From a bacterium (GTDB taxonomy: Bacteria; Patescibacteriota; Minisyncoccia; UBA6257; JAUSGH01): a stretch of 64,000 bases of DNA. The translations under genes were made by a program, and so were the position numbers. Location: positions 1,454 through 65,453 of the forward strand of contig JAUSGH010000019.1 in the NCBI GenBank assembly GCA_030649055.1, in the 5' to 3' direction. The notes beneath the pieces were generated by a model. That model searched no databases and was not told where the DNA came from. It saw nothing but the letters and a program-made list of their open reading frames with translations. Of this stretch, positions 2,991 to 50,841 are shown in pieces; within the stretch, counting starts at the first letter, position 1; each line of letters starts with the position of its first letter.

Positions 2991-3019
2991 AAAAACCCCG
3001 ACCTTGGCCGGGGTTTTTC
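2991..3019. terminator. bidirectional terminator hairpin between convergent genes (AAAACCCCGACC-tt-GGCCGGGG-TTTTT)
   Basis: A-run, GC stem, T-run. Confidence 0.5.
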
Positions 3020-5660: not shown

Positions 5661-5692
5661 AAAAAAAATAAGCCGCGGGGCTTATTTTTTTG
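5661..5692. terminator. bidirectional terminator AAAAAAAATAAGCC-gcgg-GGCTTATTTTTTT overlapping the stop of the downstream minus-strand gene
   Basis: Symmetric A-run, stem, T-run. Confidence 0.55.
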
Positions 5693-7501: not shown

Positions 7502-8618
7502 GTCTGTACGACCGGCGGGGCTTCTGCCGGTCAGAACATCGATTGAACCGACCGAACGTTCCGAACTGAATATTAGAAGCACTAAAAGTAAAAAAATGAA
7601 TGTAACATAGAATGTTTCTATTACGGTGAGCTTGTCGAACCGCTGGAAATTTTCTATGTTACCCCAAATCTGTTCCGAAGGTGGGCGTTTCGCCGACTGT
7701 GTGCACTCGTGCACATTCGAGGCGAGCCGCGAACCTTCTTTCGAGGATTTGATCCTGGTCCAGGATGAACGCTGGCGGCGTGGATAAGGCATGCAAGTCG
7801 AACGGTCGAGCGCACGTTGCGCTCGGTAGTGGCAAACGAGTTAGTAACGCCCTGGTACGTACCCCCGAGTCGGGCATAATTCCGCGAAAGCGGGACTAAT
7901 TCCCGATGGTGTCGCCTTAGGCGACTAAAGGAGCGATTCGCTCGGGGAGCGGCCTAGGTCCTATCAGCTAGTTGGTGAGGTAAAAGCTCACCAAGGCTAC
8001 GACGGGTAGGGGGGGTGAGAGCCCGATCCCCAACGAGGAGACTGAGACACGGCTCCTACACCTACGGGTGGCAGCAGTCGAGAATATTCGACAATGGGCG
8101 AAAGCCTGATCGAGCGACGCCGCGTGCAGGATGAAGGTCTTAGGATTGTAAACTGCTTTTCTACGGGAAGAAGTGTGCGTAGCACACAGTTTGTTAGTTC
8201 GTCAGTTACGCTTCGCTCTAGTTTATTAGTTGGTGAAACTAATTAACTAGCAAACGAACAGCGAGCGGAGCGAGCGGAACTAGTCAACTATGTGCTGCGC
8301 ACATTGACGGTACCGTGGGAATAAGGGGCGGCAAACTTCGTGCCAGCAGCCGCGGTAATACGAAGGCCCCGAGCGTTATCCGGATTCATTGGGCGTAAAG
8401 GGCGCGTAGGAGGTTCGGTCCGTCTCTCGTGAAATCTCGGAGCTCAACTCCGAACCCGCGGGGGAAACCGCCGAACTAGAGGGTGTTAGAGGCAGATGGA
8501 ACACACGGTGTAGGGGTGAAATCCGTTGATATCGTGTGGAACACCAAAGGCGAAGGCATTCTGCTGGGACACTCCTGACTCTGAGGCGCGAAAGCGTGGG
8601 GAGCAAAAAGGATTAGAT

Positions 8619-9690
8619 AAATCCCGTTCCGGCTCCAAAGAAACGGAACAAAGGGTGTCCCCTCCGACGGCGACGTCGGGGTGCGCATTCAGCTATATCG
8701 GGGAAGGCCGTCTTGTCAGGCGGTTAATCCCGAGGGAAGTTATTCAAGCCTCACTTTCGACTCTTTAATTATAGAGAAAAGTGGAGCTTGTGTAACCCCG
8801 TAGAGACTATGTAAGTAAGAAAATAGAAAATGACCAAGTCATTTTTGTTGGATCGATGTAAGGAAATTATTCTGGGTTCTTTGTTGGGTGATGGGTCCTT
8901 AAAGATCTATAAGCCCTACAAAAATGCCCGATTTTCCTTTCGACATTCGGTACATCAAAAAGATTATTTTTTCTGGAAAGTTGAAGAATTAAAAGAAATT
9001 TCCGGAGAGAAATCTTTTTGGGAACAAAAACCGAATAGTTTGGGAGGAGATATGTTGCGATACCAAAGTTTAGCATTAGAATTGCTTACGGAACTGCATC
9101 GGCTGACTTACGAGCATAATTGTCTCGTAATACGTCGAAAATGGCTGAACATGATGACGCCATTATCGCTTGCGATTTGGTGGCTTGATGATGGTTCGCT
9201 TATTGGCAATGGAAAGCGAGGTGTGTTTTGTACCGACCCGTTTTCGTTTCATGAACAAGAGATTTTATCGCAGTATTTACTCAAGGTTTGGAAAGTAAAA
9301 ACTGCGATTGGAAAAATTGTCCGCGAGCGGGAAGGAAAAAAAGTTGAGTACTATCGGCTATGGATTCGTTCAAGCGAAGAATTAAAAAAATTTCTTCGGA
9401 TAATCCTCCCCGAAATACCATCCGCATCTACATTGCCTAAAGTTCTTATTCTTTACAAAGATTCCCAATTACAGCAACGCTGGGTTTCTGAAGTTGTTGA
9501 AGCAACGCATTTTTCTCGAGAGATTATTGAAAGGTATCTTGCTGAGAAAAAAGCGAAATATAAGCGATTTCAGAAAATGATATAGTCCGATCCTCCGAGT
9601 AATCGGAGCATCTAATAGGTCTAAATCCCTAACGCTTAGGAATTAGGATTTAGAAATTAGAAATTGCAATTTTGCCAAGCAAAATTGTTG
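8619..9690 (+). mobile_element. group I intron in 16S rRNA (inserted after GGAUUAGAU, ends with G before ACCCUUGUAGUCC) carrying a homing endonuclease ORF
   Basis: Exon sequence diverges from the universal 16S at 8619 and resumes at 9691. The intron ends in G. Boundaries are accurate to about 1 nt. Confidence 0.75.
8830..9585 (+). CDS. LAGLIDADG homing endonuclease (two-motif, single-chain) encoded within the 16S intron
   Basis: ILGSLLGDGSL and AIWWLDDGSLIG motifs. Low-GC ORF inside the rRNA gene. Confidence 0.8.
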   Translation: MTKSFLLDRCKEIILGSLLGDGSLKIYKPYKNARFSFRHSVHQKDYFFWKVEELKEISGEKSFWEQKPNSLGGDMLRYQSLALELLTELHRLTYEHNCLVIRRKWLNMMTPLSLAIWWLDDGSLIGNGKRGVFCTDPFSFHEQEILSQYLLKVWKVKTAIGKIVREREGKKVEYYRLWIRSSEELKKFLRIILPEIPSASTLPKVLILYKDSQLQQRWVSEVVEATHFSREIIERYLAEKKAKYKRFQKMI

Positions 9691-9786
9691 ACCCTTGTAG
9701 TCCACGCCCTAAACGATGCTGATTAGCTGTCTCGAGTATCGACCCTCGGGGTGGCGTAGCTAACGCGTTAAATCAGCCGCCTGGGA

Positions 9787-9818
<32 letters not shown>

Positions 9819-9829
9819 AGACGGGGACT

Positions 9830-9864
<35 letters not shown>

Positions 9865-9942
9865 GTAAGCGAAGAACCTTACCAGGGCTTGAAATGCACT
9901 TGAAGACCGGCAGAAACGTCGGTCGTCTCTCAAGGACAAGTG

Positions 9943-9973
<31 letters not shown>

Positions 9974-10828
9974 ATCGTGAGACGTTCCCTTAAGTGGGGT
10001 AACGAGCGCAACCCCTCTCTGGTGTTATAAGTGTCACCGGAAACCGCCCCCGTTTTTGCCCGCAAGCAATGAAATGCTTGTGTTCAAAAACGGGGGAGGA
10101 AGGCGGGGATGACGTCAAATCCGCATGGCCCTCTGATGCCCTGGGCCACACACGTGCTACAATGGCCGTTACAAAGGGTTGCCAAGCCGCAAGGCGGAGC
10201 TAATCCCAAAAACACGGCCCCAGTTCAGATTGGAGGCTGCAACTCGCCTCCATGAAGTTGGAATCGCTAGTAATCGTAGGTCAGCTACACTACGGTGAAT
10301 ACGTTCTCGAGTCCTGTACTCACCGCCCGTCAAGCCAGCGGAGTCGGTAATACCTGAAGCCCAGCACTTTGTTCGCAACGCAGTTGTTAACAAAGTGCTG
10401 GGTAAGGGTAGGATCGATGATGAGGGCTAAGTCGTAACAAGGCACGCGTAGCGGAAGCTGTGCGTGGATCATCTACATAAACTTCTATAATTTTTGTTAT
10501 AGAACATAATAGATCGGAGCGCGTCGAAAGGCGCGCGTATGGCGTTCGTCGATGAGCCAAAAGTCTCGACGCGGACTTGCTTTCTGATGAAGCAAGGTTG
10601 GGATAACGCAAAAGTTTTTGATCCTTAGTTTTTACAAAAAATGCGAATGAGGCATTGCGCTCTCTTTCGCGTTTTTTGGTTGTCGTGTAACATAGAATAC
10701 ATGCCCCGTGCTACAACTTCGATGGCGCATAAGCGCGTAGAGATAGGCGAAGTCGGCGCGGAACAAGAGATGCTCTTAACATCAACGACAACCCATTATC
10801 AACATCAATCGAAGTTGTAGCACAGGGT

Positions 10829-37950: not shown

Positions 37951-37986
37951 AAAAACCCGGTCGCCTGAGGCGACCGGGTTTTTTGT
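37951..37986 (+). terminator. intrinsic terminator CCCGGTCGCC-tgag-GGCGACCGGG-TTTTTT
   Basis: Perfect 10-bp GC stem plus T-run. Confidence 0.8.
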
Positions 37987-44394: not shown

Positions 44395-46248
44395 ATGTGG
44401 CAACGTATCGTACGGCGGCATCGTTTGGTTATTCTCATCATTCTCATGCTCGCCAGCATCGGCGTATTGGGCTTGTCGTATGAACAGCAATACCGCGGGA
44501 GATTTTATCCGGGCGTAATTCTTGGGGGCATTGATGTTGGCGGGAAGTCTTATGGGGACGCGCGGGCGTTGTTTGAGCGGCGCGCCGGCGAGTTCGCTGA
44601 GCACGGGCTTGATTTTATTTTTGAGCGTGGCGACAAACAAAAAGAAGTGCGGGTGCCCGCGTTTATCGCCGGTCTCACTCCCGACAACCTTGTGGTATAT
44701 TTTTCGCTTGGTAATTGGGCGGCAACCATTCGTGATGCATACGCCTTCGGCCGGACGGGTTCGTTGTGGCGCCGTGGCACGGAGCAATTCGGCGCGCTTG
44801 TCTCCCGCAAAAATATTGACATGCCCGGCACCGCAAACAGAAACGCCGTGCAGTCGCTGTTGAATCGCGAACTTGTAAAGTTCTTTTCAACCGCCGCGCC
44901 GGCGCAGTTTGTTAAAAGGGGTTCGCTCATGGTCATTGCATCGGAAAAAATCGGCGAGCGGGTGGATGACGCGGAGATATTTGATGCCATAAGTCGGAAC
45001 CTCGCCGTGTTCGACGCAAGCGTCATTCGCTTGCGCGCCAAAACTGAAACGCCAGAAGTGACGGCGGAAAAACTTGAGCCGTTTTTGAAGCTCGCGAATG
45101 ACATCGCCAATTCGGCCCGTCTGACCTTTTATTATCGGGACGCGCGCTGGCGGGTGAATGGCGCGACGCTCGCAAGCTGGCTCACGCTCAAGAGTTCCCG
45201 CGAAATCGGTATTGATACCACGAAGCTCAAAAATTTCCTCGACAAAACCGTGGTGCCGGTTATCAACGACCCTCCGCGCAACAGCCGTTTTGAAATGCGT
45301 TCCGGCACGCTCGTCGAAACTATTCCCGGAAAATCCGGCAATGTGGTGGATATTGAGGCGACGGTGCGGCATGTGGAAAAGGTGGTGTACACGGTACAGC
45401 GTTCGTATGCCCAGAACGGTAATTTGTATCTCGCGCTCGTTTCGGCAAACGCGCAGGTGAACGTCACCGCGGATAGCGGCGCAATGGAAATCCCCATTGA
45501 AACCATTGAAGCCAATCCGGAGATCACTAAAGCGACTATTGAGGAATATGGCATTCGGGATCTTGTCGGCTCCGCGAAAACAAGTTTCAAGGGAAGCAGT
45601 TCCGACCGGCGGCATAACATTGAAATCGGCGCCGCGAAGTTGAATGGCATACTCATCGCGCCCGGGAAAGAGTTTTCCGCGGTCACCTCCATCGGCACCA
45701 CTAGCGAGGCGGAAGGGTTTCTTCCCGAATTCGTCATCAAAGAAAATAAAAGCGTCAAAGAATTGGGCGGCGGACTTTGCCAGGTGGCGACAACGCTTTT
45801 TCGGCTCGCGTTAAATGCCGGACTTCCGGTCACGGAGCGGACTAACCACCGCTACGTTGTGTCATATTACGGGCCGGGGCTGGACGCAACCATCTACGAC
45901 CCGAAGCCGGATTTGAAGTTTGTGAACGATACGGATACGTATTTATTGTTGCAGGGAAGAGTGGAGGGCGATGAGGTAGTGTTTGAGCTGTATGGCCGGC
46001 GGGATGGGCGGTTGGCGTTGATTTCTGATCCGATATTGACGGATGAACTACCGGCGCCGGACGTAAATTATGTTGCCGCTCTCGATTTACCCGTCGGAGA
46101 GATTCAGTGCAGCGAGACGCCGCGCAAGGGGATTACCGCCGATGTCACCTATACGGTGCGCTATGTATACGGAGAAATAAGGGAACAGAAATTTCACAGC
46201 GTGTATCAGCCGTGGCAACGCATTTGTCTTGTGGGATTACTGCAGTAA
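44395..46248 (+). CDS. VanW-family protein
   Basis: N-terminal TM. C-terminal VanW box LGGGLCQVATTLFRLALNAGLPVTERTNH. Confidence 0.7.
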   Translation: MWQRIVRRHRLVILIILMLASIGVLGLSYEQQYRGRFYPGVILGGIDVGGKSYGDARALFERRAGEFAEHGLDFIFERGDKQKEVRVPAFIAGLTPDNLVVYFSLGNWAATIRDAYAFGRTGSLWRRGTEQFGALVSRKNIDMPGTANRNAVQSLLNRELVKFFSTAAPAQFVKRGSLMVIASEKIGERVDDAEIFDAISRNLAVFDASVIRLRAKTETPEVTAEKLEPFLKLANDIANSARLTFYYRDARWRVNGATLASWLTLKSSREIGIDTTKLKNFLDKTVVPVINDPPRNSRFEMRSGTLVETIPGKSGNVVDIEATVRHVEKVVYTVQRSYAQNGNLYLALVSANAQVNVTADSGAMEIPIETIEANPEITKATIEEYGIRDLVGSAKTSFKGSSSDRRHNIEIGAAKLNGILIAPGKEFSAVTSIGTTSEAEGFLPEFVIKENKSVKELGGGLCQVATTLFRLALNAGLPVTERTNHRYVVSYYGPGLDATIYDPKPDLKFVNDTDTYLLLQGRVEGDEVVFELYGRRDGRLALISDPILTDELPAPDVNYVAALDLPVGEIQCSETPRKGITADVTYTVRYVYGEIREQKFHSVYQPWQRICLVGLLQ

Positions 46249-46298
46249 ATGCAAGCGCCGGCCCCGCATTTGCGAGACCGGCGTCTTGTGCGACGAAC

Positions 46299-46559
46299 CT
46301 ATCGGCAACCGCGGTCGCGGCGCCAGCGATGATCGTTTCTGGGCGGCGGATCGCAGCGCGGCGGAGTATACCTCGGCGGGTTGTGCCGCGGACGGTTCCA
46401 GTTGTCACTGGGGCAGGCTCCCTGCTCGTGGCGGTAACCGCACCGTCCGCAGCGGTCGTATTCCACGCCGACGTTGACGCGCCAATCGATGCCATTGCAA
46501 CCGACGGCGCCGAGGCCGAGGGCGATGGCAAAACCGAGACAGAGCACGACGCGCTTCAT
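46299..46559 (-). CDS. small Cys/Pro/Arg-rich putative lipoprotein
   Basis: MKRVVLCLGFAIALGLGAVGC signal with possible lipobox. High-GC region with many overlapping ORFs, so uncertain. Confidence 0.3.
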   Translation of the reverse strand: MKRVVLCLGFAIALGLGAVGCNGIDWRVNVGVEYDRCGRCGYRHEQGACPSDNWNRPRHNPPRYTPPRCDPPPRNDHRWRRDRGCR

Positions 46560-46660
46560 GGGGTTCTCCTTTCAAAAAAACCAATCGAAGCACCGATCTA
46601 CTATAGCACAAGCATGCGGAAAATGAAAAGCGCTTGGTTTATTCAGTTCGTCAGTCGGCA

Positions 46661-46704
46661 TTAATAACATTCCGACATTCTCAAGAATGTCGGAATGTTA
46701 TTAA
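46661..46704. repeat. palindromic element copy A (TTAATAACATTCCGACATTCTCAAGAATGTCGGAATGTTATTAA)
   Basis: Perfect palindrome. Embeds the TAA stop of the helicase gene. Confidence 0.85.
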
Positions 46705-48431
46705 TCGTCTTTGAAAAGTATGCGGGCGAAGCGGAGGTCGTCGAAGGAATATTTTTCCCGGAAATGTTGAAACACCGGCGTCAATTTTTCGTGTCCGATG
46801 GTGTGAAACGCGGCGTGGATTTCCGGCAGGGCGTTTTTTAATTCCGTGGATATAAATGTGGCGAGTTCTGCTTGCGTCACGGCGCCTTTTTTATAGAGAT
46901 CGGTAATGTGCGCGCAGACCGTTCCCGGCGTGAGGTTCCGGATTGCGGCAACTTCGGCGATTGTTTTTCCGCTTTGAAGCAGCGCATGCGTCATGGCAAT
47001 CGTCGGTTGTTTTGCCCCGCCCCGAGCCCCGTTTGTTTCCATGTTTTTTTGTTTCATTGTTTCATTGCTCGCTGTATTGCCTCCGCACGCGAGAATAAAA
47101 TCCCTATGCGCCGCCGCGGCGGTTTCCGCGGACGTGGCGCTCTGTGCGTGTGCCGCCACAACCGATGCGCCGCGGAATGCTTCGTCTTTCACGAGTATCT
47201 CCGGATGCACCTGAAACGCGCGTTCATTCCAGCCCAAAAGATGCAGTCCCGAAAGTTGCCGCACGCGGGAGAGTGCCACATACCCCTGGCCGAATTCAAA
47301 CACATTCCGTAAATCCATCACCGCTTCGTCCAAACTCATTCCTTGGCTTTTATGCACGGTGATTGCCCAGGCGAGGCGCAACGGAATTTGTTTGATGCGC
47401 GCGAGCGGCCGGTCGTTTTCCTCTATCATCCACTCCACCGGCTCAACTTCAATGCGTTCCCTTCGGCGTGTTTCCACTATCGGGTAACCGTCATGCGCGC
47501 TAAAACCCACCACTACTCCCAGCGTGCCGTTCACATAACCCTCCTTCTGATTATTCTTTGTGAACATCACCGCCGCGTTGATTTTCAAGAATAGCGTTTC
47601 CGGCGAAAGGCAGTTTTTGATGAGTGTAGCCGCGAGCTTCGGCGCTCCCTGTGAGGTCATCAAAAATGAATTTTCGTGACCCGGGAGGCGCTTGAGCATC
47701 TCCGCATTGATGCGGTCTACGTCGGCATTATGCGTGAAAAGTTTCGGCGCGTTTTTCGGCGCGGTCGCCAGTGAAGTCATTCTTTTTGCGATGTGCGCGA
47801 GGTGCGTTTCGTTAAATATGTTTTGCCTGATGGCGGAAAGCACGCCGAGGAATTCCGGGTCATCCTGCCGGTGCTGTTCCTCGAGGTAGCACACCGTGAG
47901 GTTGGCGTCTCCCCAAGCGGTTGAGTCATACGCGAACACCGGCGGGTTGTCGTCGGCAAATGATGCTTGCCCGGCTTCTGCTTCCCGCCGCTTCACAATC
48001 GGAGGAAGCTGGAAAAAGTCGCCCACCAGCACCACTGGCAACCCGCCGAACGGTTCTGTTTTTGATAAAACTTCCCTACATGCGGCGTCTACCATCGTCA
48101 ACGTGTTTGCGGAAAGCATGGACACCTCGTCAATAATCAGCACCTTCGCGCGGCGCATGCGTTTCACCACGCGCTCATTTGCGGCTATCATGCGCAGGTC
48201 ATATTTTGTGAGCGCTTCTTTGATGCCAATGCCGCTCCACGCGTGGATGGTCATGCCGCCGATGTGCGTCGCGGCTATACCCGTTGAAGCGGTGATTGCC
48301 GGCTCAATATCGTGCTCGTGCAGCCAGCGTACATAGTGATTCACCGTGTGCGTTTTCCCGCTGCCCGGCTCGCCGGTCAAAAATACATTCGCTCCGGTCT
48401 TCAATATTGTGAGCGCCTCCTCTTGTGTCAT
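46701..48431 (-). CDS. PIF1/RecD-family ATP-dependent DNA helicase with C-terminal HTH domain
   Basis: Walker A GEPGSGKT, AAA_30-type core, LVGDFFQLPP, C-terminal helix-hairpin region. Confidence 0.7.
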   Translation of the reverse strand: MTQEEALTILKTGANVFLTGEPGSGKTHTVNHYVRWLHEHDIEPAITASTGIAATHIGGMTIHAWSGIGIKEALTKYDLRMIAANERVVKRMRRAKVLIIDEVSMLSANTLTMVDAACREVLSKTEPFGGLPVVLVGDFFQLPPIVKRREAEAGQASFADDNPPVFAYDSTAWGDANLTVCYLEEQHRQDDPEFLGVLSAIRQNIFNETHLAHIAKRMTSLATAPKNAPKLFTHNADVDRINAEMLKRLPGHENSFLMTSQGAPKLAATLIKNCLSPETLFLKINAAVMFTKNNQKEGYVNGTLGVVVGFSAHDGYPIVETRRRERIEVEPVEWMIEENDRPLARIKQIPLRLAWAITVHKSQGMSLDEAVMDLRNVFEFGQGYVALSRVRQLSGLHLLGWNERAFQVHPEILVKDEAFRGASVVAAHAQSATSAETAAAAHRDFILACGGNTASNETMKQKNMETNGARGGAKQPTIAMTHALLQSGKTIAEVAAIRNLTPGTVCAHITDLYKKGAVTQAELATFISTELKNALPEIHAAFHTIGHEKLTPVFQHFREKYSFDDLRFARILFKDD

Positions 48432-48515
48432 GCACCAAGTGTAGCAGAATTTTCTTCGTCATTGCGAGGCGGTGCACAAATTGGAGATTAGCGAACGGTG
48501 TAGTAAAATTAAAAT

Positions 48516-48725
48516 ATGGCTCAGCAAGGAATGTTTAATGCCGCACTCGCCCTTCTTCTTTTCTTGATTTATTTTTTGCCGACCATTATTGCCGGCTTCA
48601 GTGGGAAGCGGAATGGCTGGGCGATTTTTGCATTAAACTTTTTTCTCGGGTTTACATTTATCGGCTGGATTATTGCGCTGGTGTGGGCATTAACAAAAGA
48701 TAGCGTCCAAGTGGAGATAAAATAG
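48516..48725 (+). CDS. superinfection-immunity-like small membrane protein (Imm_superinfect family pattern)
   Basis: YFLPTIIAGFSGKRNGWAIFALNFFLGFTFIGWIIALVWAL. Confidence 0.55.
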   Translation: MAQQGMFNAALALLLFLIYFLPTIIAGFSGKRNGWAIFALNFFLGFTFIGWIIALVWALTKDSVQVEIK

Positions 48726-48734
48726 AGTTAGTGT

Positions 48735-49241
48735 ATGACCCTCGGCAACATATTCAAGCTCATCATTTCCATTGTCGTCTCCGAACTCGCCGGCGTGATC
48801 GGCGCGTTATATACGACTCCGGCGATACAATCCGGTTGGTATGCCGGCCTTATCAAACCCGCCATCAACCCTCCGGCGTGGGTGTTCGGTCCCGCGTGGA
48901 CAACCCTCTACGCGCTGATGGGTATTTCGCTTTTCCTCATCTGGAAAGAACATTCTAGCATTCTGCAGAATGTTAGAATGTTCCGAATATGGAAAATCGG
49001 CGTCGCGGTATTTTTTATTCAACTTGCGCTTAACACTCTCTGGTCAGTTATCTTTTTCCGTCTTCATTTACTTGGTGGAGCGTTTATTGAAATCATCTTC
49101 CTCTGGCTCGCTATTCTTGTCACTATCATCGCGTTCGCCAAAATTTCCCGCCCCGCGGCATACTTGCTTTTACCCTATATCCTTTGGGTAGCTTTCGCGG
49201 CGTACTTGAACTACAGTATTTGGGCGTTGAATGTGCTTTAA
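48735..49241 (+). CDS. tspO: TspO/MBR (tryptophan-rich sensory protein) family
   Basis: WYAGLIKPAINPPAWVFGPAWTTLYALMG signature, 5 TM. Confidence 0.8.
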   Translation: MTLGNIFKLIISIVVSELAGVIGALYTTPAIQSGWYAGLIKPAINPPAWVFGPAWTTLYALMGISLFLIWKEHSSILQNVRMFRIWKIGVAVFFIQLALNTLWSVIFFRLHLLGGAFIEIIFLWLAILVTIIAFAKISRPAAYLLLPYILWVAFAAYLNYSIWALNVL

Positions 49242-49246
49242 CGACT

Positions 49247-49288
49247 AAATAACATTCCGACATTCTCAAGAATGTCGGAATGTTATTT
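49247..49288. repeat. palindromic element copy B (AAATAACATTCCGACATTCTCAAGAATGTCGGAATGTTATTT)
   Basis: Perfect palindrome immediately after the tspO stop. Confidence 0.85.
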
Positions 49289-49308
49289 TATAGATTTACG
49301 GGTGTATA

Positions 49309-49968
49309 ATGAAATTAATGAATATATTATTTCAAGATTTTTTCGCTAATCTTTCCGGCGTGTTTCGCGGGCGGAACTTGTATTGGCACTTGCTCGCCGT
49401 TCTGTTGACGCTCGGGCTGGTTCTTTCCGGATTTGATTGGTATTACGCGACTATAACCCGTGGCGGCGTTGTCGCAAAAATTTTATTCCCCGCAGTTTTT
49501 TTCGGCGGTCTTTTGCCGATTATTTTGCCGCTCGTTATCGTGACGCTCGGGGCGGTGAAGCGGAGCGCTTATACCATCCGTGCCGGCTGGGCGACGGGGC
49601 AAGCGGCCATCGTCGGATTACTTGCTTCATTTTTCTATAAAGCACTCACGGGCAGGGCGCATCCGGAATTGATATCGGCGGCGCTTGGCGACATTTCGCG
49701 CGTGTTCCATTTCGGATTTTTACGTGGCGGAGTATTTTGGGGCTGGCCATCTTCGCACACTACCGTTGCCTTTGCCGTCGCGGCGGCGCTTGCGACGCTG
49801 TATCCGAAAAATACATACGTCGTATATCTCGGATTTTTGTATGCGCTGTACGTCGGATTTGGCGTTTCTATGAGCATCCACTGGTTTTCGGATGCCGTCG
49901 CCGGCGCTATTATCGGCATCGTTGCCGGGGTAACCATCGGCAAAAGTTTTCTTAATCCGAAAATATAA
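49309..49968 (+). CDS. PAP2-family phosphatase (undecaprenyl-diphosphatase/phosphatidate phosphatase-like)
   Basis: KALTGRAHP, PSSHT, SIHWFSDAVAG motifs (KxxxxxxRP, PSGH, SRxxxxxHxxxD). Confidence 0.75.
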   Translation: MKLMNILFQDFFANLSGVFRGRNLYWHLLAVLLTLGLVLSGFDWYYATITRGGVVAKILFPAVFFGGLLPIILPLVIVTLGAVKRSAYTIRAGWATGQAAIVGLLASFFYKALTGRAHPELISAALGDISRVFHFGFLRGGVFWGWPSSHTTVAFAVAAALATLYPKNTYVVYLGFLYALYVGFGVSMSIHWFSDAVAGAIIGIVAGVTIGKSFLNPKI

Positions 49969-50002
49969 CATTCCGATATTCTTGAGAATGTCGGAATGTT
50001 AT
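49965..50002. repeat. palindromic element copy C (ATAACATTCCGATATTCTTGAGAATGTCGGAATGTTAT, inverted loop orientation)
   Basis: Embeds the TAA stop of the PAP2 gene. One arm mismatch (GATATT vs GACATT). Confidence 0.8.
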
Positions 50003-50016
50003 GGTACGCTGGAACG

Positions 50017-50286
50017 ATGAAAAATTCAAAACAGCTTGAGCGGCACTTCAAGGGTGCGGCGAATCATTCGCGTATCGATATTTTGTTTTTGATTTCCGGA
50101 AACCCCGATATTACCGTGGAGGGAATTGCTGAAGGGACGCACAAAAATTTTAAAACGGTTTCCGAGCACACTAAGCGGCTGGTTCACGCCGGCCTTGTGA
50201 ATAAAAGCTATCGCGGCCGGAACGTGCTTCATGCCCTTTCGCCGTACGGAATAAAGTTTGTTCACTTCATAAAAACGTTCATTTAA
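50017..50286 (+). CDS. ArsR/SmtB-family HTH transcriptional regulator
   Basis: ORF 49996..50286, likely start MKNSKQL. Includes HSRIDILFLI...DITVEGIAEGTHKNFKTVSEHTKRLVHAGLVNKSYRGRNVLHAL. Confidence 0.7.
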   Translation: MKNSKQLERHFKGAANHSRIDILFLISGNPDITVEGIAEGTHKNFKTVSEHTKRLVHAGLVNKSYRGRNVLHALSPYGIKFVHFIKTFI

Positions 50287-50321
50287 CATTCCAACATTCT
50301 TGAGAATGTTGGAATGTTAAA
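50282..50321. repeat. palindromic element copy D (TTTAACATTCCAACATTCTTGAGAATGTTGGAATGTTAAA)
   Basis: Perfect palindrome with a compensated arm variant (CCAACA/TGTTGG). Embeds the TAA stop of the ArsR gene. Confidence 0.85.
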
Positions 50322-50337
50322 TACGGATTTTAAAATT

Positions 50338-50841
50338 ATGCAAATACCCAGACGAAAATCTGATTTATTACGGAAGCGGGACAGCGGACCGGTGTATTTG
50401 ACTGCGGAGGGACTGGCCGCGATGCGGGAGGAGTTGGCGCACTTGAAACAAGTGTTACCGGCACGCATCGCCGAGACGGCGCGGACTGCGGCGTATGGCG
50501 ACCGGTCGGACAATGCCGAATACAAAGAAGCGAAAGGGACGCTGCGCCGCACGCACTGGCAGATCTTAAACATTGAGGAGCAGCTAAAACGCGTTGAAGT
50601 TATTTCTTCGGGTGTGAATGCCTCCGGCACTGTGCAGCTTGGTTCTACGGCGGTGCTTGAGCACAACGGAACGCAAACAACATTTCATATCGTCGGACCG
50701 CTCGAAACCGATCCTGACGCGGGACGCATTTCTCATTTGTCGCCGCTTGGGAGCGCGCTCATTAATCATGCCAAGGGCGAAATCGTTACCATCCAAACGC
50801 GCGGCGGAGCGCAGACATATCGCATCGCAGAAATCCGATGA
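50338..50841 (+). CDS. greA: transcription elongation factor GreA
   Basis: ORF from 50314, likely start MQIPRRK. Includes LTAEGLAAMREELAHLK, DRSDNAEYKEAK and a C-terminal FKBP-like domain. Confidence 0.8.
   Translation: MQIPRRKSDLLRKRDSGPVYLTAEGLAAMREELAHLKQVLPARIAETARTAAYGDRSDNAEYKEAKGTLRRTHWQILNIEEQLKRVEVISSGVNASGTVQLGSTAVLEHNGTQTTFHIVGPLETDPDAGRISHLSPLGSALINHAKGEIVTIQTRGGAQTYRIAEIR

Follow-up and report, generated by a model that had tools for sequence, protein, structure and literature searches.

A 34-bp palindrome framing an ArsR-like gene in Patescibacteria: a predicted operator that also occurs as an insertion

We analyzed a 64,000-nucleotide (nt) stretch of the Patescibacteriota contig JAUSGH010000019.1 (assembly GCA_030649055.1; the whole stretch is called the window below), in which a short palindrome recurs around a gene for an 89-amino-acid (aa) ArsR-like protein. 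Pfam analysis of the gene cluster confirmed a PIF1-type helicase with HTH_40, Imm_superinfect, TspO, PAP2, HTH_5 (ArsR), and GreA. The gene for the PIF1/RecD-like helicase with a C-terminal HTH_40 domain is located on the minus strand (46701-48431; stop codon 46703-46701). The plus strand carries tspO (48735-49241; stop codon 49239-49241), a PAP2-family phosphatase gene (49309-49968; stop codon 49966-49968), the ArsR-like gene (50017-50286; stop codon 50284-50286), and greA (50338-50841).

Scanning the window for sites with at most 8 mismatches across the 32 arm positions revealed five palindrome copies, all inside one 3.7-kb cluster, compared to none in shuffled windows. The 34-bp core of the palindrome is AACATTCYNAYATTCT-NN-AGAATRTNRGAATGTT. 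Copy A (46660-46705) is a 46-bp perfect palindrome with its core at 46666-46699 and the centre CA, and is located between the helicase stop codon and the promoter of a small lipoprotein gene. A homologue of this helicase likewise has a palindrome at its 3' end in the loci L121/L136 and L123. Copies B (49247-49288; 42 bp, perfect, centre CA) and C (49965-50002; centre TG, one T.G mismatch) bracket the PAP2 gene, and copies C and D (50281-50322; 42 bp, perfect, consensus arms, centre TG) bracket the ArsR-like gene. The greA start is 15 nt downstream of copy D. Copy E (48948-48983, plus strand) is slightly degenerate and is part of the tspO reading frame, where it encodes the peptide EHSSILQNVRMF in the loop between the transmembrane segments TM2 and TM3.

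The first-pass annotation of this DNA had described copies A to D, which were all found where it had placed them, with inverted centres and without a clean T-tract at any copy; it had counted four copies and missed copy E. It had also proposed that each palindrome takes up the TAA stop codon of the preceding gene in its left arm. This is the case for the PAP2 gene (copy C) and the ArsR-like gene (copy D). For the helicase it is only approximately so, since the minus-strand stop codon lies in the outer ATTAAT extension beside the core of copy A, and it is incorrect for tspO, the stop codon of which is outside the palindrome, 5 nt upstream of copy B.

To describe the gene context of the palindrome, we used the loci of the best 80 of at least 529 relatives of the ArsR-like protein in metagenome contigs, with homologues 59 to 85% identical. 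A palindrome was present 15 to 88 nt before the start codon in 75 of the 79 assessable loci, and 78 of 80 loci had one at the stop codon. The offset of the downstream copy is fixed at -6 in 67 of the 80 loci: it overlaps the last 6 nt of the protein match, and its sequence supplies the C-terminal TF(QHS) together with the stop codon. Thus, the conserved C-terminus of the protein (...K-T-F(-Q-H-S)-stop) is encoded by the left arm of the palindrome. The same flanking layout was seen in independently fetched loci and in a genome scan. In L002, the gene order is GreA-palindrome-ArsR-palindrome-TspO, and the adjacency of ArsR and TspO was found again in this locus and in L134.

The upstream copy is tightly connected to a promoter. 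An extended -10 element (TGnTAnnnT) was found within 32 nt past the ArsR-upstream copy in 51% of the loci (3% background), and a TATAAT-like hexamer in 64% (16% background). The favoured offsets of the extended -10 element were +1 and +10, with the ATG 6 to 7 nt later, so that the pattern palindrome-TGnTAnnnT-N6-7-ATG recurs among the loci. In the window, the ArsR-like gene promoter read from the sequence is predicted at 49982-50010 on the plus strand. Its -35-like element TTGAGA (49982-49987) is made by the centre of copy C, a copy that contains the PAP2 stop codon and overlaps the core promoter of the next gene. After a 17-nt spacer follows the extended -10-like element TGGTACGCT (50002-50010), and the ATG at 50017 is only 6 nt further on, so that the mRNA is probably leaderless. 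The upstream palindrome is predicted to span about -16 to -49 of an extended -10 promoter, a position classic for an autorepressor. Since this copy is located in the promoter, ahead of the predicted transcript, a role as RNA in the ArsR-like mRNA is excluded.

The PAP2 gene is preceded on the plus strand by an extended -10 element read from the sequence (TGTATAAT, 49303-49310), the TATAAT hexamer of which (49305-49310) is separated from the end of copy B by 20 nt. From the position of this element, the true PAP2 start is likely at 49318, on a leaderless mRNA. Both the PAP2 and the ArsR-like gene show an extended -10 element followed by an ATG 6 to 7 nt on, and no Shine-Dalgarno sequence, which suggests leaderless mRNAs for both. 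The longest-open reading frame (ORF) or annotated starts at 49309 (PAP2) and 49996 (ArsR-like) are probably wrong, and 49318 and 50017 are the better choices.

We then determined where palindromes occur relative to the ArsR-like gene in 81 non-redundant loci. Within 200 bp of the gene, the density was 4.7 copies per kb, and it fell to 0.21 per kb at 0.2 to 1 kb, 0.15 per kb at 1 to 2 kb, and 0.11 per kb at 2 to 3.5 kb. Beyond 3.5 kb, no copy was found in 233 kb. The copies in the window obey the same distance rule. These values, the five copies in a single cluster of the 64 kb, and the absence of a REP (repetitive extragenic palindrome)-associated tyrosine transposase (RAYT) do not fit the REP-like genome-wide repeat that had been considered in the first-pass annotation. 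The other neighbours in the 81 loci were heterogeneous (PIF1 helicase in 8, RadC in 6, DNA methyltransferase in 6, TspO in 5, and HsdS in 4), and a conserved operon or regulon was rejected on these grounds.

The palindrome is widespread. With one genome per species, at least 120 loci matched the 16-mer arm, and 53 among the matches listed have the full palindrome. In the window, all copies are confined to the 3.7-kb cluster, and the sequence as such recurs in well over a hundred other genomes. Nearly all carriers among the matches listed are Patescibacteria, and they belong to many classes (Saccharibacteria, Paceibacteria, Doudna-, Giovannoni-, Nomura-, Jorgensen-, Harrison-, and Brennerbacteria). 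The ArsR-like homologue was the only gene family that recurred beside the palindromes found by pattern search among these matches. A few carrier metagenome-assembled genomes are labelled Kiritimatiellia, Verrucomicrobia, or Bdellovibrionales. Perfect palindromes, in some cases with the ArsR-like gene, were present in L040, L068, L071, L011, L036, L081, and L117, the labels of which are Verrucomicrobia, Kiritimatiellia, Gammaproteobacteria, or Bdellovibrionales. These could be mis-binned Patescibacteria contigs or cases of genuine transfer outside the superphylum.

Alignment of 296 half-sites gave the arm consensus A-A-C-A-T-T-C-Y-N-A-Y-A-T-T-C-T, in which A3, T5, A9, A11, and T12-T15 hardly vary and position 8 is unconstrained. 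Across classes, 11 of the 16 arm positions are at least 94% conserved, eight of them at least 98%. One arm consists of two AYATTCY heptamers 8 bp apart, and the full site of four heptamers oriented > > < < about a 2-nt centre, which is mostly GC, TG/CA, or TA. The four heptamers per 34-bp core are enough for two dimers.

Copies A to C carry CCGACA/TGTCGG and copy D carries CCAACA/TGTTGG. Copy D had initially been regarded as the variant, with compensatory changes implying selection for pairing. However, CCAACA is the family consensus and CCGACA the local variant, and the conclusion on pairing is unsafe, because symmetric variants shared within a genome could also reflect protein specificity or homogenisation. 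Indeed, symmetric variants were genome-specific and common to all copies of the respective genome. Examples are AACACTCC, present in three copies in L123, and AACATCCTTACA, present in three copies in L135. Furthermore, the distance between sites was 3.5 within a locus and 4.7 between loci (permutation p<0.0005). Perfect pairing is not required, since asymmetric arms are conserved as well: both copies in L125 have the identical T/C mismatch, and the asymmetric pair CCAACA/TGTGAG is recurrent in TspO copies. In the outlier L131 (56% identity), GAATAC replaces GAATGT in both flanking sites and the architecture is kept.

The 89-aa protein has a clear relationship to the ArsR/SmtB family. It matched Pfam HTH_5 with E=1.4e-7 (31.7 bits, cut-off 22), and it scored 36.1 bits with the NCBIfam model HTH_metalloreg, which is under the 55-bit cut-off. 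The AlphaFold2 model (predicted local distance difference test score 96.5) shows the canonical winged helix a1-a2-a3-aR-b1-b2-a5, and Foldseek aligned it to CadC, CzrA, HlyU, YgaV, and SmtB with template modelling (TM) scores of 0.8 to 0.88. The best sequence match in the PDB was HlyU. The window protein contains no cysteine, and its invariant residues do not form a known metal site (a3N CXC, a5 His/Asp/Glu). It has 76 close homologues of 88 to 97 aa, and the recognition helix is near-invariant. Members of the ArsR/SmtB family bind N-2-N inverted repeats, 12-2-12 (PMC8790569).

Palindromes were also detected within genes. All credible intragenic copies are in one reading frame and encode [EQK]HS[ND]IL[EQK]NV[GR]M. 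They were found in genes for TspO, TsaD, Tgt, Pgk, HsdS, a nuclease, and a glycosyltransferase, and in one more long ORF. Most close TspO homologues of Patescibacteria contain WKQH[SP][NY]ILENVRML, and a subset has a loop that is 7 aa shorter; the tspO copy is old and inherited in a TspO subfamily. L133, L134, and L135 still have the DNA palindrome within tspO. In L135, the variant AACATCCTTACA...TGTAAGGATGTT is common to the intragenic copy in tspO and two intergenic copies, and it changes the peptide from SN to PY. Since the variant is shared despite the peptide change, constraint or homogenisation acts here on the DNA and not on the protein. A 92-aa ORF next to the L135 tspO is not an ArsR homologue.

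The L090 Pgk contains a 15-residue insert, RPQHSNILQNVGMLW, which is missing from all ten closest homologues (63 to 76% identity). The inserted DNA is a 42-bp perfect palindrome with AGA/AGA flanks, and the sequence comparison identifies this copy as a lineage-specific insertion. A search for empty sites among the loci analysed gave one convincing case: L150 has the order EamA-palindrome-GIY-YIG-palindrome, and in the related L161 no palindromes accompany these genes. The 82-aa GIY-YIG-domain gene (L150 2308-2648, L161 2040-2290) has two perfect flanking palindromes in L150, and the L150 EamA protein ends with ...NGTFQHS, a palindrome-encoded tail as in many ArsR homologues. At the same position of homologous HsdS genes, the copy is intact in L061 and decayed in L213. 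These genes for type I restriction specificity subunits (L061 1943-1976; L213 around 4233; L175 5293-5922) repeatedly either carry an in-frame copy in their conserved central region or end at the ArsR-upstream copy. In the Parcubacteria contig L028 (1787-1839 and 4952-5004), the arms are 21 nt apart (GACTTGCCCGCCTCTGGAGGG) instead of 2 nt, and the unit is present twice, together with some 40 nt of flanking sequence on either side, one copy being at the contig end. This unit may be a longer, MITE (miniature inverted-repeat transposable element)-like derivative of the palindrome.

Together, the layout of the loci, the promoter overlap, and the clustering argue that the palindromes are probably the cognate binding sites, i.e., predicted operators, of the 89-aa ArsR/SmtB-fold protein. 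That the bracketing copies are candidate operators of the regulator had already been suggested in the first-pass annotation, and the near-universal flanking of the gene lends this prediction strong comparative support. According to this model, the protein bound at the upstream copy would obstruct RNA polymerase and thus repress the gene that encodes it. The second copy at the gene 3' end could serve as an auxiliary operator (with a loop of about 320 bp), as a roadblock, or as a hairpin terminator. Auxiliary operators in coding regions, such as lac O2 and gal OI, strengthen repression via looping. Further copies (A, B, and E in the window) would stem from local events, either duplication or insertion, over a range of about 3.5 kb, and would probably put neighbouring genes under the same control or merely persist as bound sites. 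The rare copies that land far away would survive only where they fall at the 3' end of a gene or, in frame, in a protein loop that tolerates them; they may be rare insertions filtered by selection.

Several observations weigh against this operator model. The 16-2-16 format of the site and its 8-bp heptamer period are together unusual for the ArsR/SmtB family. Covariation between protein and site was not demonstrable (Mantel r=0.08, p=0.11), and the peaks of mutual information were in merely variable columns; these tests are uninformative because the recognition helix and the core bases are both near-invariant. The extended -10 element followed only 4% of the copies away from the gene, which equals the background, and 5% of the downstream copies. 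Distant copies were more frequent at convergent than at divergent junctions (13 versus 2 with loose ORF calls, 9 versus 3 with strict calls), and they are located at gene 3' ends or in frame within genes, some of them in coding sequence. Since they lack promoter association, prefer convergent junctions, and occur in coding sequences, the distant copies are not classical operators. Furthermore, 13 to 26% of the copies show at least 3 bp of complementarity beyond the core, in variable sequence, where about 2 to 3% is our estimate from base composition. The two arms of one palindrome were also more alike than arms of different palindromes of the same genome (positions 2 and 7, within versus between palindromes: 0.86 versus 0.66 and 0.59). 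Arm symmetry and flank extension thus exceed expectation, which points to a contribution by a hairpin-related process (selection or templated mutation) not accounted for by protein binding alone. Such symmetry could arise without selection, through hairpin-templated correction of quasi-palindromes. We conclude that the primary constraint is likely to be protein recognition, with a hairpin-related mutational or functional component on top.

The strongest rival explanation is a selfish mobile palindrome (REP-, MITE-, or RPE-like, the last referring to Rickettsia palindromic elements), e.g., two abutted terminal inverted repeats that some enzyme would move. The ArsR-like gene would then be a cargo or a mobility repressor, and host genes would not be regulated. 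The L090 Pgk copy and the difference between L150 and L161 are real insertions, and the in-frame copies in TsaD, Tgt, HsdS, the nuclease, and the glycosyltransferase, with the single frame HSNIL.NVGM, resemble those of Rickettsia palindromic elements (PMC10969869). The avoidance of divergent, i.e., promoter-containing, junctions by distant copies and the palindrome-gene-palindrome layout, similar to REP-RAYT-REP, also fit a mobile element. However, no transposase, recombinase, or nuclease family recurred near the copies in the neighbour survey of the 81 loci. The copies are very few and closely confined, with a sequence that is conserved over classes instead of being species-diverged. The upstream copy is built into a conserved promoter, and the downstream copy is an integral part of the gene's coding end. 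No consistent target-site duplication was seen, the core consisting of the arms and 2 nt. The palindrome pattern had no match in viral contigs, and tblastn with the ArsR-like protein against plasmids and phages gave no matches, so that carriage by phages or plasmids was rejected. Considering this, we regard a purely selfish element as doubtful.

We consider it unlikely that the palindromes act primarily as RNA hairpins, i.e., as factor-independent or bidirectional terminators or as 3' mRNA stabilisers. The predicted folds are highly stable (-21 to -32 kcal/mol, z -6 to -10.6), the stems extend past the core, the arms are symmetrised, and many copies abut or contain stop codons or fill convergent junctions. 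On the other hand, terminators need no sequence conservation, and the strong conservation of most arm positions is left unexplained. The palindrome stems are AT-rich and are not followed by a U-tract, whereas ordinary GC-rich terminators with T-tracts are present elsewhere in the window (e.g., 37951-37983, 5662-5691, and 2991-3018). The ArsR-upstream copy precedes the predicted transcription start, some copies reside within essential coding sequences, and non-pairing variants are conserved. In a manual tally of single-arm transitions by sense strand (G.U versus A.C), about 8 were consistent and 5 inconsistent with a transcribed hairpin, which is no clear bias. With Rfam 15 at the gathering threshold, only 16S rRNA was matched in the window, and an E-value scan of the cluster region returned merely sub-threshold, unrelated eukaryotic miRNA hairpin models. 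Thus, the terminator or stabiliser function proposed in the first-pass annotation is possible for gene-end copies, where it would be secondary, but it accounts neither for the sequence conservation nor for the upstream copy.

Very unlikely, in our view, is that the palindromes are site-specific recombination sites delimiting cassettes, similar to attC or pdif modules, between which the ArsR, PAP2, GIY-YIG, and 113-aa helix-turn-helix (HTH) genes would move. Small genes are indeed bracketed (PAP2 and ArsR in the window, HTH in L134, GIY-YIG in L150), and the central dinucleotide CA/TG is the only asymmetry, as in a crossover region. Moreover, L104 has PfkB-palindrome-transketolase and L132 has transketolase-palindrome-ArsR-palindrome-PfkB. 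An indel between the window and L121 has its right edge at copy C, but its left edge has no palindrome, and a simple cassette model for this difference was rejected for that reason. In addition, no recombinase recurred among the neighbours surveyed, L150 and L161 share the bracketed gene and differ only in the palindromes, and attC sites are much longer and less perfect than the copies. Chromosome-level sites for a structural or barrier protein (an AspA-like centromere, or an RTP/Ter-like fork barrier with the PIF1 helicase) are highly improbable: a small winged-helix gene does lie amid its own multi-copy palindromes, has weak similarity to AspA (E 6e-3 at the sequence level), and neighbours a PIF1 helicase in 8 of 81 loci, but this helicase is missing from about 90% of the loci, no partition ATPase is located nearby, and the promoter-embedded geometry suits a repressor better. 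A Ter/RTP-like origin or terminus was rejected since the GC skew has one sign over the whole 64-kb window, and the cluster is thus at neither.

The predicted operator and its protein can be compared with known systems. They share with the ArsR/SmtB autorepressors (SmtB, CzrA, CadC, AzuR, and the non-metal HlyU) the fold, the small dimer-type winged helix, and an N-2-N inverted repeat that overlaps the regulator's own promoter, binding being predicted in our case. They differ by the 16-2-16 arrangement with four heptamers and near-perfect symmetry, by a second copy that forms the gene 3' end, by the lack of a Cys/His metal site and of a conserved efflux or resistance operon, and by the copies in coding sequences. 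Retention of an inverted-repeat operator together with its repressor over large phylogenetic distances, as seen here, is known from HrcA and CIRCE (controlling inverted repeat of chaperone expression). CIRCE controls a conserved chaperone regulon, whereas no such regulon is visible for the palindrome, and its sites multiply by insertion.

Like REP sequences or bacterial interspersed mosaic elements with their RAYT, the palindromes are short, are often found at gene 3' ends, and flank the associated gene. However, the flanked gene encodes a DNA-binding regulator and not a Y1 (HUH) transposase, and there are 2 to 6 copies per locus instead of hundreds per genome, with conservation across classes instead of species-specific sequences. 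In-frame insertion into unrelated housekeeping genes and addition of a conserved peptide are shared with Rickettsia palindromic elements (PMC10969869) and intragenic MITEs. In contrast to these, the palindromes have 34 to 46 bp instead of about 100 to 150 bp, contain no internal sequence, show no evident organisation with terminal inverted repeats and target-site duplications, have a very low copy number, and are tied to a specific regulator gene. The pair is best classed as a putative autorepressor-operator pair of the ArsR/SmtB type, the operator of which behaves like REP sequences or Rickettsia palindromic elements. A full-text literature search, for the sequence and for Patescibacteria palindromes with ArsR, returned nothing relevant.

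In the neighbourhood of the palindrome-ArsR-palindrome module, further genes were noted. The module tends to sit in variable islands. The neighbourhoods in L123, L125, L130, and L133 are rich in defence and DNA-repair genes, with LexA-like Peptidase_S24-methyltransferase fusions, restriction enzymes, Mrr/NERD nucleases, RadC, Fic, toxin-antitoxin systems, and SLFN-type helicases. PADLOC reported merely generic HTH and helicase similarities. A second small gene, encoding a 113-aa protein with an N-terminal hydrophobic segment and an HTH, has palindromes on both sides in at least two loci, L134 (5093-5527) and L140 (2868-3304), and it adjoins the ArsR-like gene in 5 of the 81 loci.

In the window, the small gene downstream of copy A (46299-46559, minus strand) encodes a predicted Cys-rich lipoprotein of 86 aa without Pfam matches, and it has its own TG-extended -10 promoter (46629-46600). 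A long plus-strand ORF (46107-46664) that seemingly ends in copy A is probably spurious. Outside the cluster, the 16S rRNA gene (7737-10479) has 2743 nt compared to the 1533-nt model, so that about 1.2 kb is inserted. Within the inserted DNA is a 251-aa ORF (8830-9585) with the LAGLIDADG-like motifs LLGDGSL and WWLDDGSL. This fits the arrangement of an intron with a homing endonuclease, which is typical of Patescibacteria rRNA genes.

Patescibacteria, or candidate phyla radiation (CPR) bacteria, have few regulators and do not grow alone, and to our knowledge, almost nothing is known about their transcription control. The palindrome and the ArsR-like protein represent a very widespread candidate regulator-site pair with a defined promoter geometry. 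Moreover, the predicted binding site behaves like a low-copy mobile element, which supplies stop codons, C-termini, and a fixed peptide in Pgk, TsaD, Tgt, and TspO. This is relevant to the spread of cis-regulatory sites and to their tolerance by tiny genomes, and HsdS-borne palindromes could matter for the shuffling of target-recognition domains. The 34-bp core can be used as a marker that flags such loci, and it accounts for odd, seemingly conserved peptide inserts (HSNILENVGM) as well as for over-extended ORFs in CPR annotations. As a tentative extension of the operator model, which we consider possible but not probable, the pair may be a self-propagating repressor-operator module: a winged-helix gene framed by its own 34-bp site would have this site copied to nearby junctions and sometimes, in frame, into essential genes, the copies would be kept intact superphylum-wide by the protein or by hairpin-templated correction, and at gene ends they may act as roadblocks or terminators. 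If true, the module would define a new class of mobile cis-regulatory elements, with a DNA-binding protein as the partner rather than a transposase.

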